A stretch of 64,000 nt of DNA from Treponemataceae bacterium (GCA_963667725.2 CAXXHO010000003.1:1536001-1600000); one strand, 5' to 3'; counted from the first letter of the stretch, positions 16,402-23,105 are shown. The notes: generated by a model from the letters alone, not told the origin. Program-made: numbers and translations.

Positions 16402-17364
16402 TCAAGTTCTATCGAGCTTATGTTCCGGCCGGATGGACCAGGGCTGGTTCATGTTATAGCGGAATATTATCTCCAGTTTGTCCCGAATGCTCTCCGTCGG
16501 GAGAAAGAGCGTGATGGCGCGATTCCGGCGAAAATCGGTGCTTGAGGGCGTTCCGACCACGCTTCGGTCGAAATGGACCTCTATCCCCTGGTCCCTTATC
16601 TGCTTGAGATACGGCGCGGATTTTCCCTTTGCGTTTCTTCTCGCCACGTAGACGGAATGGCTGAACTCGACGCCCGAGAGCGAAGCCTGTTTTCGCCATA
16701 CGTTCAGGTCTTCCTCGATGAAGCGCGCCGCGATCGGGAGGACATCCGACCCTATGAGATGGGTCAGCTCCAGTTTCATGCCCGTGTGCATCGCTATGAA
16801 CCTGCGGATAATCTCTATCGTATCGGCGTCATTCCCGAGATCGAGGGGCAGAATGAAAGGTTCAAAAAGCCCGGCCAGCTGCATTTTAGCGATCTGGAAC
16901 CTGAAGGGGTAATCGGTTTTCTGGGGCTTGCCCGGATTGGACGAACCTTCGGGAACGACGATCATGATGTCGGAGCCGTTATGAGGGGAAGCGAGGAGTC
17001 TGAGCGCTATGGTGAGGTGCGTCAGCTGGAAGGGATCGAAGGAACCGATGTACATCGCCACCCGGGCGACGCCGTTGGGATAGCGCACGATTTTCGGATA
17101 ATCCCTCGTATCGAGGGGATGCATCTCACCCTTGCGCGCTTTTTCGTCTATATCGTAGAGCGCCTGGACGATGAGGTGTTCATAATATGAATAATCTTTG
17201 AGTTCGAGTGGTCCGATATAGCCCAGATGGGGAAGGGATTCGAATATCTTCTTCAGCCGCTTGGCGAGAAGATCAACTTTTTGGTTTGAAAATTTGGATG
17301 GCCACAGACAGGGAAAGCTGTAGGAAGAACCCGGCAAAGGCTCTTTTTTGTCTAGTTGATCCAT
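16402..17364 (-). CDS. Nucleotidyltransferase of the cytidylyltransferase superfamily (NadD-like), divergent motif
   Basis: MYIGSFDPFQLTH, VVP, LIGSD, PSST. Start at ATG 17364 is supported by AATACT 6 nt upstream. Confidence 0.7.
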   Translation of the reverse strand: MDQLDKKEPLPGSSYSFPCLWPSKFSNQKVDLLAKRLKKIFESLPHLGYIGPLELKDYSYYEHLIVQALYDIDEKARKGEMHPLDTRDYPKIVRYPNGVARVAMYIGSFDPFQLTHLTIALRLLASPHNGSDIMIVVPEGSSNPGKPQKTDYPFRFQIAKMQLAGLFEPFILPLDLGNDADTIEIIRRFIAMHTGMKLELTHLIGSDVLPIAARFIEEDLNVWRKQASLSGVEFSHSVYVARRNAKGKSAPYLKQIRDQGIEVHFDRSVVGTPSSTDFRRNRAITLFLPTESIRDKLEIIFRYNMNQPWSIRPEHKLDRT

Positions 17365-17505
17365 TGCTACAGTATTCAATGGAAAATACATTAATGCAAC
17401 AATTTTTGATTAAGATATTTAAATAATATTTTACCGATATAATTAACAATATATTACCTTCTCAAATATTTTTTATATTTATCTCTATTTATCTATATTT
17501 TTTTC

Positions 17506-17533
17506 TTGACAAACTGTTTAAGCGGCGCATACT
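17506..17533 (+). promoter_or_regulatory. Sigma-70 promoter of the hydrogenase operon
   Basis: TTGACA-16 nt-CATACT following an approximately 110-nt very AT-rich tract. Confidence 0.6.
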
Positions 17534-17598: not shown

Positions 17599-18114
17599 AT
17601 GCCATCGATCACCGTGAAACAGCCAAGTTCGGACATCGAGCGGATTGTTCACAACAACCTCGGAACTCCAGGGAGCCTGCTGAAAATTCTCGAGCAGGCC
17701 CAGGAAAACGATCCCAAACATTATCTGTCGGAAGAGACCCTCAAAAATGTCGCGCAACTCGTGGGAGCGCCGCTCTCGCAGGTTTACTCGATGGCGACAT
17801 TTTACTCTTTCTTCAACCTCAAGCCGCAGGGCAAGCACTCCATCGTCGTCTGCAGGGGAACGGCTTGCCATACCAGAGGCTCCCTCTCCCTTCTCAACGA
17901 AGCGCTGTCCCGCATGGGAATCCAAGGGTTCAAGGAAGAGGAGGAGAATTCGGCGACAAGCCCCGACAGCTTCGTCTCCATCAGGACGGTCGCCTGCTTT
18001 GGCCAGTGCGCCCTCGCCCCTGTCGTCATGATAGACGGGGTGGTGAAATCCAGGATGACCATCGGAAAACTGGTCTCCCTCCTCGATAAGCTCAAAAAAG
18101 GAGGCGACAAATGA
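17599..18114 (+). CDS. [FeFe]-hydrogenase NuoE-like [2Fe-2S] subunit (HydC/HndA)
   Basis: ATFYSFF, VCRGTACH, CFGQCALAP; AGGAGG RBS. Confidence 0.93.
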   Translation: MPSITVKQPSSDIERIVHNNLGTPGSLLKILEQAQENDPKHYLSEETLKNVAQLVGAPLSQVYSMATFYSFFNLKPQGKHSIVVCRGTACHTRGSLSLLNEALSRMGIQGFKEEEENSATSPDSFVSIRTVACFGQCALAPVVMIDGVVKSRMTIGKLVSLLDKLKKGGDK

Positions 18115-21100
18115 ACGCCGTCATCGACCTCGGAGACCTCCGGAAAAAAGGATTGTCCCATATCGTCAACGGAACGCCCTGGATATCGGTAGGATTGGGT
18201 ACCTGCGGCATCGGCAACGGAGCCGATGAAGTATTCGCCGCCATAGAAGAGTCCATCAAGAGCACGAAAATAGCCGCCAAGGCGAGGCGCGTGGGCTGTT
18301 TCGGTTTCTGCGCGGCCGAACCCGTCGTCATGGCATATCGCCCGGGCAACCCCCTTCTCATGTTCGCCGACGTAAAGGCCTCGAAGGCCCTTCTCCTCGT
18401 GAAAGGCCTGGCCGATGATGCCGCCTTCGAAAAGATCGCCAAGCTGGCCGAAGCCAAGATAGAGTCCTGGGATTTCAGGACTCATACCGTGACCTTCGGT
18501 CAAGGCTTTCCCTTCCTTCCTACTTGGAAAGAGCTGGCCTTTTTCAAGGGACAGGAAAAACTGGTTCTCAGGGACTGCGGTCTCATCGATCCCGAGCAGA
18601 TTGAGGAATATATCGGGGTAGGAGGCTACACAGGCCTTCTCAAGGCGCTCACCACCATGACGCCCGACTCGATAATCGAGGAAGTGAAAAAATCCGGCCT
18701 TCGCGGACGAGGCGGAGCGGGCTTCCCGACCTGGAAAAAATGGCGGATCATGCGGGACAACGTCCTGGCCAGTCCAGGGGAAACCTACGTCATCTGCAAC
18801 GCCGACGAAGGCGATCCGGGCGCTTACATGAACAGGAACGAGATAGAATCCGATCCCCATATGCTCCTCGAAGGGATCATCACCGGGGCATACGCCATGG
18901 GGGCGTCGCAGGGCATCGTTTACGTGCGCGCCGAATACCCACTGGCAGTGCAACGCCTCACCAAGGCGCTCGAACAGGCGAGAAAAGCCGGCTTGCTCGG
19001 CAAGAATATACTGGGAAGCAAGTTCAATTTCGACATCGATATCGTGACGGGCGCGGGCGCTTTTGTCTGCGGCGAGGAAACCGCTCTCATCGCTTCCATC
19101 GAGGGCAAGGCTGGACGTCCCGCCCCCAGACCGCCCTTCCCCGCCCAAAAAGGGCTTTACGGCAGGCCCACGACCATCGGCAACGTGGAATCCTGGTGCA
19201 ATGTGCCGGTCATCGTCGCCCGGGGCGGAGAGTATTTCGCCGCGATCGGAACGCCTTTGAGCACCGGCACCAAGGTCTTTTCCTTTGTCGGCAAAGTGCG
19301 CAACACCGGTCTCGTGGAGCTGCCCCTGGGCTCCACCCTCGAAAGCGCCGTGTACGGCATGTGCGAAGGCATGGGTCCGAAGAAGAAAATAAAGGGACTC
19401 CAGTCGGGCGGTCCCTCGGGCGGCTGCATTCCCGCCTCGCTTTTCAAGACGCCTATCGACTATGAGCACCTCACCGAACTGGGCGCCATCATGGGCTCGG
19501 GCGGCATGGTCGTCATGGACCAGGACAACTGTATGGTCGACGTGGCACGCTATTTCATCAGCTTCACCGCGAGCGAGTCCTGCGGCAAATGCACGCCCTG
19601 CCGTGAGGGTACGGCCCAGATGCTCAACATTCTGCAGGGCGTGGCTGACGGCGAGGCGAGCGAGCAGGATCTCAAGACGCTGGAGGCTCTGGCCCTCTCC
19701 GTGAAGGATTCCGCCCTCTGCGGACTCGGTCAGACAGCGGCCAATCCCGTGCTCACTACCCTGAAGTATTTCCGCGACGAATACATCCAGCACATCAAGG
19801 CCAAGCGATGCCCGGCCGGCATCTGCGAAAATCTCTATGTAGCCCTCTGCGAATCCTCCTGCCCGCTGCATATGAACATCCCAGGCTACCTGCAGCTCCT
19901 CAAGGAAAACAGGATAGAGGATGCCTTCGAGCTCACCCTCCGCGAGAATCCGCTGCCCGGTTCCCTCGGCCGCATCTGCCATTTCCACTGCAGGATGCGC
20001 TGCAGGCGCGACATGCTCGACGAGCCGGTGTCCCAGGGTGAAATCCATCGCTACCTCGCCGATTCCATGTACAAAATGGGAAGGGAAAAATCGATCTACA
20101 ACAGGCTCATCAAGGAAAAGCTGCCTCCCACCGGAAAAAAGATCGCCATCGTCGGCGCCGGTCCAGCGGGACTCGCGGCGGCCTTCTGGCTTTCGCGGCT
20201 CGGTCATGAGGTTACAGTCTACGACGCCGAAAGCGAGGCCGGCGGCGTGCTCAGATGGGGAATTCCCTCCTACCGTCTGCCCAAGGACGTACTGAAGAAG
20301 GAAATTTCCTTCATCCAGAAACTGGGCGCGCGCTTTATCTTCAATACCAGAATGGAGACGAAGGAACAATGGCAGAGGCTTCTCGATGCCTCCGACGCCG
20401 TCATCATCGCCGCGGGAGCCGGAAGCGAGATAAGCCTCAACATTCCCGGGGAGAACCTGAAAGGCGTCATCCCCGCGAGCGAACTGCTCAAGAATATCAG
20501 CGAAGGCCAGAAGCCCAAAATCGGCAGCGAAGTGATCGTTGTTGGCGGAGGGAACTCGGCGATCGACGCGGCCAGGTCAGCGCTGAGGCTCGGCGCCCAT
20601 GTCACGCTCGTGTACAGAAGGGCTCGCTCCGATATGCCTGCCAACGTCGAGGAACTAACCGGCGCGCTGGAAGAAGGCGTTTCACTCACCTGCATGACCC
20701 AACCCGTCGAGGTGCTGGGCAACGGAAACGCGCAGAATCCCAAGGCCAAGGCGCTCAGGGTCCAGAGAATGAAGGCCGGCCCAGTGGATTCCTCGGGCCG
20801 CCCCAGGCCTGTGCCCACCGACGATTTCTACGAGATTCCATGCGACTCGATCATCGTCGCCATCGGCGAGAAGGTGGGGATTCCGGGTCTGGATGCTATC
20901 GATGTTGGCGTGGAGCGGGACGGCCGCCTCAAGGCCGATCCCTATTCGCTGCGTTCCGCCAATCCCAAGGTGATTGTCTGCGGCGACGCGGCCATGGGGC
21001 CAGCGACAGCGGCCGAGGCCATGGGACAGGCGCGGATCGCCGCCGAATCGCTCGACGAGACGCTCACCGGCGAAAAACGCTTCCAGAAATTGTTCAGGTC

Positions 21101-21311
21101 CTTCGAATACAAGATGCAGGTGCCCAGCAAGCTCACCAAGGCCAAGATGACCAGGGCGGTATTCATACCGGTGGATGCCCGAAAGAGCAATTTCATGGAA
21201 ATTTCCCTCGGTTACACGGGCGAGCAGGCGCGGATCGAAGCCGAACGCTGCTTGCGCTGCGATGTTCGCGATCGGAAGCGCCAGACCTACAGCGCTCCGC
21301 TGGAAGAATAA
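18111..21311 (+). CDS. Hydrogenase flavin subunit: HndB-like domain + NuoF/HydB + GltD/NfnB-like FAD-NADPH domain fusion
   Basis: VGLGTCG/CFGFC; SGLRGRGGAGFP, NADEGDPG, CGEETAL, GGPSGG, ESCGKCTPCREG; then CESSCP, GRICHFHC, GAGPAG, GGGNSA, YRR, EAERCLRC. Confidence 0.93.
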   Translation: MNAVIDLGDLRKKGLSHIVNGTPWISVGLGTCGIGNGADEVFAAIEESIKSTKIAAKARRVGCFGFCAAEPVVMAYRPGNPLLMFADVKASKALLLVKGLADDAAFEKIAKLAEAKIESWDFRTHTVTFGQGFPFLPTWKELAFFKGQEKLVLRDCGLIDPEQIEEYIGVGGYTGLLKALTTMTPDSIIEEVKKSGLRGRGGAGFPTWKKWRIMRDNVLASPGETYVICNADEGDPGAYMNRNEIESDPHMLLEGIITGAYAMGASQGIVYVRAEYPLAVQRLTKALEQARKAGLLGKNILGSKFNFDIDIVTGAGAFVCGEETALIASIEGKAGRPAPRPPFPAQKGLYGRPTTIGNVESWCNVPVIVARGGEYFAAIGTPLSTGTKVFSFVGKVRNTGLVELPLGSTLESAVYGMCEGMGPKKKIKGLQSGGPSGGCIPASLFKTPIDYEHLTELGAIMGSGGMVVMDQDNCMVDVARYFISFTASESCGKCTPCREGTAQMLNILQGVADGEASEQDLKTLEALALSVKDSALCGLGQTAANPVLTTLKYFRDEYIQHIKAKRCPAGICENLYVALCESSCPLHMNIPGYLQLLKENRIEDAFELTLRENPLPGSLGRICHFHCRMRCRRDMLDEPVSQGEIHRYLADSMYKMGREKSIYNRLIKEKLPPTGKKIAIVGAGPAGLAAAFWLSRLGHEVTVYDAESEAGGVLRWGIPSYRLPKDVLKKEISFIQKLGARFIFNTRMETKEQWQRLLDASDAVIIAAGAGSEISLNIPGENLKGVIPASELLKNISEGQKPKIGSEVIVVGGGNSAIDAARSALRLGAHVTLVYRRARSDMPANVEELTGALEEGVSLTCMTQPVEVLGNGNAQNPKAKALRVQRMKAGPVDSSGRPRPVPTDDFYEIPCDSIIVAIGEKVGIPGLDAIDVGVERDGRLKADPYSLRSANPKVIVCGDAAMGPATAAEAMGQARIAAESLDETLTGEKRFQKLFRSFEYKMQVPSKLTKAKMTRAVFIPVDARKSNFMEISLGYTGEQARIEAERCLRCDVRDRKRQTYSAPLEE

Positions 21312-21323
21312 AGGGGGAATGCC

Positions 21324-23105
21324 ATGGAAACCAAAACTATAACGATTACCGTCGACGGACACAGCCTGGAAGTGGACCCCGAGCAGAACCTCATCGAGGC
21401 CTGCGCCAAAGCCGGAGTAAAGATTCCGACGCTCTGCTACATGAAGGATATATCGTCCAACGCGTCCTGCGGCGTATGTGTCGTCGAAGTCGAGGGCGCC
21501 AAGTCGCTCATCAGATCCTGTGTCCAGAAACCGATGCCGGGAATGAAGATCCACACGGCCAGCGCCAGGGTGATAAATGCCCGCAGGACGGCCATCGAGC
21601 TTCTCCTGGCCAATCATCCGACGGACTGTCTTTCCTGCATACGATCGGGAACCTGCGAGCTGCGGACGCTTTCGGAGTCCCTCGGCGTTCGCGCCTCCCA
21701 TTTTCCCAAGCTCAAGAAATACCCGCAGCCCGACAATTCCTCGGACGGCCTCGTGCGCGACGACTCCAAGTGCATACTCTGCGGGCGCTGCGTGGCCGTC
21801 TGCGCCGAAGTCCAGTCCGTTCACGCGATCGCCTTCGCGGGACGCGGCGCGAGGACGCGCGTCAGCACCTTCATGGACAGGGGACTGGCGCATAGTCCCT
21901 GCGTCCAGTGCGGCCAGTGTTCGGTCGTCTGCCCCACCGCCGCGATTTCGGAAAAAGACCAGTCCCAGGAGGTTCTCGGGGCGCTCGCCGCGCCAGGCCT
22001 CACTATGGTGGTCCAGACGGCTCCCGCTATCCGCGCCTCTCTCGGCGAAGCCTTGGGGATGCCGCCGGGAAGTCTCGTAACGGGCAAGATGGTCGCCGCT
22101 CTACGGCGCCTCGGATTCTCCAAGGTGTTCGACACCCAGTTCACGGCCGACCTCACCATCATGGAAGAGGGCACCGAGCTCATCAACAGGATCAAGGGCG
22201 GAGGCACCCTGCCGATGATCACCTCCTGTTCGCCCGGATGGATCAACTTCATCGAAACCTTCTATCCGAGCCTCCTGCCCCATTTATCCACATGCAAGAG
22301 TCCCCAGCAGATGTTCGGCGCGGTGGCCAAGACCTTCTATTCCGAAAAAGCCGGAATTGCTCCGGAGTCCATGCGCGTGGTCTCCATCATGCCCTGCACG
22401 GCCAAGAAGGGCGAGACGAAGCGGAACGGAATGGATTCGGCCTACACCTGGTGGAACGAAAAAGCCGGAATGAAACCCGGGCCGAAAAAGCCTGTCCATT
22501 ATCAGGATGTCGACTGGGCGCTCACGACCAGGGAATTGGCGAGAATGATACGCCTCGCCGGCATCGAGATAGCCTCCCTGCCCGAGGAAGAATTCGACAG
22601 CCCGCTCGGAACGTCGACGGGAGCGGCCACCATCTTCGGCACGACGGGCGGCGTCATGGAAGCGGCCCTGCGGACCGTCTACGAAATCCTCGAGGGCAAA
22701 CCCCTGCCCAGAACCGACTTCACACCCGTCAGAGGGCTGCAGGGCATCAAGACGGCCGAAGTGCCCGCGGCGGGGATGAAGATTCGCGTGGCCGTGGCCC
22801 ACGGCCTGAAGAACGCCCGCGTCATCCTTGACGAAATGGCCGCTGGGAAAAGTCCTTACCATTTCATCGAAGTGATGTCCTGCCCCGGCGGATGCATCGG
22901 CGGAGGCGGCCAGCCCGTCCTCCCCGACATGGAAAAAAAGCTTGCGCGCAATCTCTCGCTCTATGCCGAGGATCTCAGGCTTCCCGAACGAAAATCCCAC
23001 CAGAATCTGGAAGTGAGCGCACTCTACAAGGAATTCCTGGGAAATCCCGCGGGGCACTTGTCGCATGAGCTGCTTCATACAACCTATGCGGCCAGGAATT
23101 TCTAG
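21324..23105 (+). CDS. hydA: Group A [FeFe]-hydrogenase catalytic subunit
   Basis: N-terminal [2Fe-2S], His-ligated HPTDCLSC, two [4Fe-4S]; H-cluster motifs TSCSPGW, MPCTAKKGE, EVMSCPGGCIGGGGQP. Confidence 0.96.
   Translation: METKTITITVDGHSLEVDPEQNLIEACAKAGVKIPTLCYMKDISSNASCGVCVVEVEGAKSLIRSCVQKPMPGMKIHTASARVINARRTAIELLLANHPTDCLSCIRSGTCELRTLSESLGVRASHFPKLKKYPQPDNSSDGLVRDDSKCILCGRCVAVCAEVQSVHAIAFAGRGARTRVSTFMDRGLAHSPCVQCGQCSVVCPTAAISEKDQSQEVLGALAAPGLTMVVQTAPAIRASLGEALGMPPGSLVTGKMVAALRRLGFSKVFDTQFTADLTIMEEGTELINRIKGGGTLPMITSCSPGWINFIETFYPSLLPHLSTCKSPQQMFGAVAKTFYSEKAGIAPESMRVVSIMPCTAKKGETKRNGMDSAYTWWNEKAGMKPGPKKPVHYQDVDWALTTRELARMIRLAGIEIASLPEEEFDSPLGTSTGAATIFGTTGGVMEAALRTVYEILEGKPLPRTDFTPVRGLQGIKTAEVPAAGMKIRVAVAHGLKNARVILDEMAAGKSPYHFIEVMSCPGGCIGGGGQPVLPDMEKKLARNLSLYAEDLRLPERKSHQNLEVSALYKEFLGNPAGHLSHELLHTTYAARNF

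Follow-up and report, generated by a model that had tools for sequence, protein, structure and literature searches.

The stretch of DNA analysed here is a 64,000-nucleotide window from a Treponemataceae bacterium (GCA_963667725.2 CAXXHO010000003.1:1536001-1600000). It carries an intact three-gene [FeFe]-hydrogenase operon of an anaerobic spirochaete, hydC-hydB*-hydA, in which the B subunit is a HydB core fused to a GltD/StnC-like module with iron-sulphur (FeS) clusters as well as flavin adenine dinucleotide (FAD). The window lies on contig C3 of the 4.22-Mb host genome, an assembly of 8 contigs with 97% completeness and 6.3% contamination. The three open reading frames (ORFs) lie on the plus strand in intact operon order: hydC (17599..18114, 171 aa) encodes a NuoE-like protein (PF01257, E 2.9e-36) and starts with an ATG preceded by AGGAGG, hydB* (18111..21311, 1066 aa) starts with an ATG that overlaps the stop of hydC, and hydA (21324..23105, 593 aa) encodes the M3-type catalytic subunit of a group A [FeFe] hydrogenase. 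Within hydB* an N-terminal thioredoxin-like region with the B5 site (18183..18320) is followed by a flavin mononucleotide (FMN)/NADH domain with the SLBB, B1 and Zn/B2 hinge regions (18684..19826, from profile matches and alignments) and by a circularly permuted GltD-like module (19839..21266).

Architecture of the three subunits

HydA scored 814.9 bits against NF040763, whose cut-off is 765, and was likewise above the cut-off of TIGR02512. Its H-cluster motifs are ITSCSPGW, MPCTAKKGE and EVMSCPGGCIGGGGQP, with TSCSPGW identical to that of A. woodii HydA (7q4v_A), and it is of the M3a type, having Ser at position 5 of P1 and no C-terminal A5 domain. HydDB assigns group A3 where the gene downstream of the catalytic subunit encodes a NuoF domain (PMC5037454); the gene adjoining hydA does so here, although it lies upstream. 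By its group A profile matches above cut-off, its motifs and this NuoF neighbour the enzyme is a group A3 [FeFe]-hydrogenase. In HydC the predicted ligands of the [2Fe-2S] cluster C1 are C85, C90, C133 and C137, and all four Cys are present in 40/40 family sequences.

The Pfam domains of HydB* are Complex1_51K (192-366), NADH_4Fe-4S (477-561), Fer4_20 (563-656) and Pyr_redox_2 (677-974), the first two accounting for the complete FMN/NAD NuoF module that a preliminary description of this DNA had recognised. Conservation was judged in an alignment of the window HydB* with 56 of the 120 best protein matches (57 rows). The HndB-like N-terminus of the preliminary description is a thioredoxin-like region without a Pfam match that does align with Bfu B subunits at their N-termini, from residue 25 with 9n5u_B and as weak separate stretches with 9bov_B and 8oh5_B. 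Its B5 pattern of C32, C63, C67 and E70 is kept in 56/57 rows, the remaining row having a gap, and this 3Cys-1Glu pattern, known here from sequence, resembles the Zn site described for Csac NfnB (PMC11829005). The putative ligands of the B1 [4Fe-4S] cluster (C491, C494, C497 and C537) and of the Zn/B2 hinge (C474, H561, C567 and C572) are likewise kept in 56/57 rows, whilst A238, M240, E322 and GGPSG (433-437) are invariant (57/57). All of these are described as characters of bifurcating beta subunits (PMC7311640, PMC9304861, PMC11829005). A238 and M240 align with A202 and M204 of A. mobile HydB, which are given among the residues that define Bfu enzymes (PMC9304861). [FeFe]-hydrogenases that depend on NADH and do not bifurcate are described as having T/S232 and K/S/A234, as having lost GGPSG and as having Tyr in place of Phe at T. 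maritima position 367 (PMC7311640), and HydB* shows neither T/S232 nor K/S/A234 nor the loss of GGPSG. Furthermore, the B2 and B5 sites are reported absent from non-bifurcating homologues (PMC9304861, PMC11829005). Amongst the beta-subunit residues that separate bifurcating from non-bifurcating enzymes HydB* is thus, as read from the alignments, of the bifurcating type at A238, M240 and GGPSG. F318 is Phe in 57/57 rows and may suit the third residue described by Losey, going by the Nqo1 motif. The Glu of CGEE suggests that the FMN works with NAD(H), by the rule for complex I.

The permuted FeS-FAD module

No Fer4 ferredoxin family is among the Pfam matches of HydB*, in agreement with the preliminary description that the ferredoxin-like tail of HydB is missing; in its place the FeS-FAD module begins eight residues past the last hinge Cys, the usual start of the B3/B4 ferredoxin domain. 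The ligands of the two clusters of the module were assigned by alignment with Csac NfnA and NfnL, and are predicted to be C580, C631, C1047 and C1050 for the distal [4Fe-4S] and C584, C623, C627 and H646 for the FAD-proximal cluster, all of which are present in 57/57 rows. The RCLxC motif, which stands at the N-terminal start of NfnL, is found at the C-terminus of the module (C1047, C1050), as in StnC, and marks a circular permutation. The NADP(H)-type fingerprints of the preliminary description, GGGNSA (812-817) and YRR (835-837), are in place, as is GAGPAG for FAD, and GxGxxA and YRR occur in 57/57 rows. GxGxxA is an NADP-type fingerprint (PMC7483475), and together with YRR it suggests that the FAD of the module works with NADP(H).

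The ligands of the FAD-proximal cluster in Csac NfnA are C108, C147, C151 and K170 (PMC11829005), which align with C584, C623, C627 and H646 of HydB*, and we infer that H646 binds the corresponding cluster. The equivalent ligand is described as Lys in StnC and Glu in the bifurcating NfnB (PMC10482914); it is His in every member of the HydB* clade (57/57 rows), and among the 101 junction-spanning representatives of 150 listed after clustering at 50%, 77 have Lys at this position, 11 have His and 6 have Glu. Among solved structures the module matches Bfu NfnA and StnC best (E 7.9e-96, 2.3e-90 and 1.6e-88), followed by NfnL/NfnB (E 5e-86 to 9e-81) and GltD (3e-45). The FAD of StnC binds NADPH and is non-bifurcating (PMC10482914). 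As StnC/NfnA modules are nearest, His replaces the Glu of NfnB and the operon contains no NfnA-type partner, the FAD of HydB* is probably not a bifurcating flavin, contrary to what the preliminary description had considered.

Four distant NuoF-GltD fusions (P0180, P0197, P0209 and P0149) have weak FMN-domain scores, with changed B1 ligands in some and an additional C-terminal ferredoxin domain in P0180. The host genome has other GltD-like modules (L106:3840-6236, L107:4421-8252 and L108:5413-8556); in one the module is joined with an XdhB-type FAD domain, another stands before 2-oxoacid oxidoreductase-like genes and the third is a YgfK homologue.

Distribution and genomic context

A pattern search of the genome collection returned 363 matches, 352 of them coding for some relative, and locus counts were made on the best 80 of these 352. 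In the best 80, hydA lies directly 3' in 74 and hydC directly 5' in 69, the remainder ending at contig edges. An assembly artefact or frameshift fusion is ruled out, the same protein being present in these 80 loci with the hydA and hydC flanks kept. In a survey of domain architecture 117 of the 120 best protein matches listed both Nuo51 and Fer4_20. The near relatives come from Treponemataceae, Rectinemataceae and other spirochaetes and the farther ones from Bacteroidota and Ignavibacteria. In the host family, 45/54 genomes at least 85% complete have the full NuoF-GltD junction at no less than 76% identity; four of the 44 other than the host were not retrieved, the match lying near a contig end. 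The three-gene design with an NADPH-type module is therefore widespread. At L026, L051, L076 and L093, hydB* or hydA is broken into two frames, by either assembly error or decay.

The host genome contains five [FeFe]-hydrogenase-family genes, adding to the present operon a canonical HydABCD, a group B enzyme and two further hydrogenase-family proteins, and it also codes for NfnAB, Rnf, glucose-6-phosphate dehydrogenase and an ELFV-family dehydrogenase. The canonical cluster has the order hydC-(kinase-like)-hydD-hydB-hydA (L101:8091-13156). The group B hydrogenase (L102:7389-12461) adjoins what we read as a probable sensory hydrogenase-phosphatase cluster, and an extra hydrogenase-family gene (L103:4723-6925) stands behind small genes that look regulatory to us.

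Absence of the known maturases

The preliminary description noted that no hydEFG maturase genes are in the window, and this absence extends to the whole host genome: profile hidden Markov model (HMM) searches found no HydG or HydE and matched only the GTPase part of HydF, and tblastn with the confirmed HydG, HydE and HydF of a relative gave no HydG or HydE match and only N-terminal GTPase matches for HydF. In a hydG-positive relative (L150:3305-8350) hydG, hydE and hydF stand in this order, with an aspartate ammonia-lyase-like gene between the last two. A survey of HydA, HydG and HydF in the 54 family genomes, mostly incomplete and related, found HydA in 54/54, HydG in 16/54, HydF in 20/54 and neither HydG nor HydF in 34/54; this 63% absence is far above what a completeness of 85-99% explains. 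The 45 genomes with the fusion divide into 12 with HydG, 4 with HydF only and 29 with neither. HydG was found in four of ten genomes taken from named loci, including Rectinema subterraneum; the other six, metagenome-assembled genomes of Bacteroidota or Ignavibacteria with long contigs, have no HydG, and the five of them that were searched for HydF have no HydF either. hydF without detected hydG occurs in G004, G005, G006 and G049, and that of G006 (L151:4568-5932) stands alone behind a pyrG/lpt-like gene cluster.

The di-iron motifs TAPAIR, ITSCSPGW, MPCTAKKxE and ExMxCPGGC are intact in 22/22 covered HydA sequences from genomes with neither hydF nor hydG, as they are in 10/10 from hydG-positive genomes. 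Median dN/dS of the H-domain was 0.085 (12 pairs) vs 0.147 (27 pairs), pairs that are not independent, and on these ratios the HydA H-domain is under purifying selection. Absence of the maturases is on record for H2-producing archaea and eukaryotes (PMC11216029), the only precedent that we found in the literature. Rectinema cohabitans, an H2 producer, has two group A3 enzymes (PMC6052044).

Discussion

The novelty implied by the preliminary description was overstated, as the architecture of HydB* is already in print. Zheng and Huang (2024; PMC11406978) described from sequence, as sub-type I BfuB, the same domain swap, in which B3/B4 is replaced by DPD_II and a C-terminal FAD/NAD(P) domain, together with an M3a HydA without A5 and with Ser in P1, so that we see no architectural difference; Spirochaetota homologues without BfuD are included. 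The authors propose the FAD of sub-type I as a possible second bifurcation centre and ask for more studies. NADP is nowhere named in the main text of that paper, and its passages on these enzymes are silent on the His ligand, on the permutation and on the stand-alone relatives discussed below. A HydB with a glutamate-synthase small-chain domain, in an AlphaFold2 model, was also presented for archaeal group F (PMC11216029), although it sits, by its description, in a five-subunit [FeFe]/[NiFe] complex, unlike the trimer of HydB*. The passages of PMC11406978 and PMC11216029 on these subunits give no assay of them, those of PMC10327494, PMC5736913, PMC4758237 and PMC6288185 do not describe this architecture, and we found no biochemical study of it in the literature searched, mostly outside subscription journals. 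New here are the His ligand, the tie to stand-alone subunits of the group A2 type, a proposed coupled reaction whose H2 threshold can be tested, and the finding that maturases are patchily lost within one family.

Of the characterised systems, HydABC (A. woodii 7q4v, T. kivui 8a6t, T. maritima 7p5h) shares HydA, HydC and residues ~25-576 of HydB with FMN, B1, hinge, B5 and C1; HydB* differs in having no B3/B4 ferredoxin domain and an extra FAD with two [4Fe-4S] clusters. StnABC/NfnABC (S. ovata 8oh5; C. saccharolyticus 9bov and 9n5u) shares the Bfu core and a permuted NADPH/FAD module, but there the module is on the A subunit, the mid-potential arm, with a Lys ligand and with ferredoxin as the low-potential partner, whereas in the HydB* complex it is on the B subunit, on the putative low-potential arm, with His aligned to K170 and a hydrogenase as the A subunit. 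NfnAB (NfnL 5jca, NfnB 4ylf) has a homologous FeS-FAD-NADP fold that is unpermuted, with a Glu ligand, a bifurcating FAD and a requirement for NfnA; HydB* has H646 and no nfnA as a conserved neighbour. As defined in PMC9304861, BfuB includes a 4Fe-4S ferredoxin domain (IPR017896; B3/B4), which HydB* lacks, while the FMN, B1, C1, B2, B5 and A202/M204 features are present. HydB* falls outside that definition yet probably works like a Bfu enzyme.

We propose a model in which the operon encodes a soluble trimeric group A3 enzyme with NADP(H) in the place of ferredoxin, catalysing NADH + NADPH + 2 H+ <-> 2 H2 + NAD+ + NADP+, and we give this model, which is argued from sequence, a probability of roughly 0.45. 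In the Bfu enzymes, as described in PMC11829005 and PMC9499530, mid-potential electrons are handled by the A subunit, the high-potential pair goes to NAD+ at the FMN, and the low-potential pair exits via C1 to a domain that has its hinge at the Zn site; in the Bfu papers cited here ferredoxin is always the low-potential partner. The elements that our model would use, namely the HydA H-cluster motifs and FeS wire, the FMN/B1/C1 core, B5 and the Zn hinge, are present in the sequence, and we infer each step of the coupled mechanism. As in other Bfu enzymes, the splitting or joining of electrons would take place at the FMN-B1-C1 site. The hinge would swing the distal [4Fe-4S] of the module to C1, and from this cluster electrons would pass via the His-ligated cluster to the presumably non-bifurcating FAD, where hydride would be exchanged with NADP(H). 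With potentials of -280 mV for NAD, -380 mV for NADP and -414 mV for H2 (PMC9304861), coupled NADH and NADPH are computed to balance at about 145 Pa H2, NADH and NADPH singly at 3 Pa and 7 kPa, respectively, and NADH with ferredoxin at 15 kPa. In a fermenter the enzyme would therefore allow NADH to be oxidised to H2 up to ~100-150 Pa, as against ~3 Pa, with NADPH paying, and the reverse reaction would form NADPH from H2 at low levels. The canonical HydABCD, NfnAB and Rnf of the host would operate alongside it and, as these and the dehydrogenases are present, the enzyme would add an outlet or a source of NADPH. The stricter statement, that the complex is an electron-bifurcating hydrogenase coupling NADH and NADPH 1:1 to H2, ferredoxin-free, via the His-ligated cluster, and is active in free-living bacteria without HydE, HydF and HydG, its H-cluster being made or acquired by another route, we consider unlikely. 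A link of H2 to NAD(H) as well as NADP(H), as put forward in the preliminary description, stands as the best reading, at the level of motifs and homology.

Several observations weigh against this coupled model. Deletion of B3/B4 from T. kivui HydABC abolished bifurcation (cited in PMC11829005), and a 50-kDa module may move unlike a small ferredoxin domain. The FMN-site motif FMDRSxLEGD has become an invariant YMNRNEIESD in the HydB* clade, a change that may alter the flavin chemistry. T. maritima position 367 falls on G373 of HydB* by an offset (-6 over 290-450) that is not a clean mapping, with Phe at both F318 and F376. For F182 of A. mobile (Schut), the nearest aromatic position corresponds to I213 of HydB*, which is Phe in 1/57 rows; in the 7t2r alignment the nearest Phe, at ~180 by manual count, pairs with I213, and Csac NfnB and StnB are also without Phe there. 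NADP(H) specificity is read from fingerprints, the margin of StnC-type over NfnB-type scores is small, and the known maturases were not found in the host genome by the searches above.

A further difficulty comes from relatives without an FMN domain, which also provide the argument for an uncoupled fork at B1, whereby electrons from HydA would pass either to FMN and NAD+ or to the GltD clusters, FAD and NADP+. Such an enzyme would be group A3 and A2 in one, a non-bifurcating two-cofactor hydrogenase that would also leak NADPH to NAD+. Residues 474-1051 of HydB* are colinear (34% identity, E 9e-90) with stand-alone proteins of ~610-660 aa, consisting of the B1 bundle and the permuted module, which make up 48/101 of the junction-spanning representatives. 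HydDB group A2, 'glutamate synthase-linked', has HydA preceded by such a subunit (PMC5037454), differing from HydB* in its Lys ligand and in lacking the NuoF domain and HydC. Nine stand-alone loci were found in 251 genomes of the phylum, and in the one whose ORFs were read, treponemal L154:1495-4826, the B1 + permuted GltD gene lies directly 5' of hydA, so that by the neighbour rule of PMC5037454 the locus would be group A2; the gene is present in 8/9 sampled genomes of that treponemal genus. As FMN and C1 are missing from this locus, HydA electrons must reach the FAD there by a path that bypasses C1, which makes it a minimal test case for a B1-to-FAD path. In a quick, unrooted tree of 47 modules (P0133 being dropped as too short), in which 17/44 inner branches are open, His-type fused modules (8 rows, support 99) group at support 92 with three other fusions and the clade of these stand-alone proteins (9 rows, support 99), and fused forms do not form one clade. 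A simple fork, however, would have no need of GGPSG, the A/M pair, B5, the hinge and C1, all of which are near-invariant, and characterised non-bifurcating enzymes lose the bifurcation-associated sites (PMC7311640, PMC9304861). The CHCC hinge is complete in 18/18 junction-spanning representatives with an FMN domain vs 5/48 stand-alone ones, the latter count being a lower bound from pairwise alignments, and group A2 enzymes are uncharacterised. On balance we regard the fork as rather unlikely, although the leading competitor.

Two other readings depart further from the coupled model. Ferredoxin may still be the low-potential partner, acting at the distal cluster, or the FAD may be a second bifurcation centre, as printed for archaeal group F (PMC11216029) and sub-type I (PMC11406978). 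Both clusters of the fold lead to ferredoxin in NfnB (PMC7483475), the Arg matching R201 of NfnL is kept (R722, YRLP in 57/57 rows) and the Glu ligand occurs in 6/101 representatives, all distant; R201, though, is kept also in the non-bifurcating StnC (PMC10482914), the HydB* clade has His and not Glu, the distal cluster is tethered to the hinge, and bifurcation by NfnAB needs the high-potential branch of NfnA, for which there is no conserved neighbour, the host nfnAB being located elsewhere. This reading appears distinctly improbable to us. We think it least probable of all that without hydEFG the A subunit lacks its di-iron site, so that the complex would be an NAD(H)/NADP(H)/ferredoxin oxidoreductase and not a hydrogenase. 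The maturase genes not found in the host and the absence of both hydF and hydG from 34/54 family genomes, all of which retain HydA, would fit such a loss, but the intact pocket motifs, the purifying selection on the H-domain and the H2-producing organisms without maturases argue against it, and placing ferredoxin on the mid-potential arm does not suit the redox order.

If the coupled model is true, bifurcation at the FMN-FeS site could be followed with two nucleotides in a ferredoxin-free system, the enzyme would reveal if a mobile B3/B4 domain as such is required, and the predicted H2 thresholds of common anaerobic spirochaetes and Bacteroidota would change. Finally, a family from which hydEFG have been lost patchily, with H-cluster motifs intact, offers pairs of close genomes in which to look for the origin of the H-cluster without the known maturases.

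Other features of the locus

A Rex-like operator pattern matched 8 times vs 8.9 expected, with none inside the promoter gap 5' of hydC, and no maturase or nfnA cluster was seen among the neighbour groups present in at least 4 of the 80 loci. A sequencing run taken as possible RNA gave depth in 28/30 bins over 20 kb, which resembles amplified DNA and is uninformative on expression. The AT-rich gap 5' of hydC contains a sigma-70-like promoter candidate on the plus strand (17506..17533, TTGACA-16-CATACT, 10/12 of the consensus), the best of 8 in the region, where shuffled sequences average 2.2, a count that says nothing on function. The conserved neighbours of the operon in the 80 loci, such as adenylate kinase, HAD hydrolase and dnaE, reflect only the ordinary synteny of spirochaetes. 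Divergent from hydC on the minus strand is a 329-aa gene without a Pfam match (16402-17391), which stands beside the operon in 38/80 loci and which, from its IGSFDPF motif, we take on impression to look nucleotidyltransferase-like.

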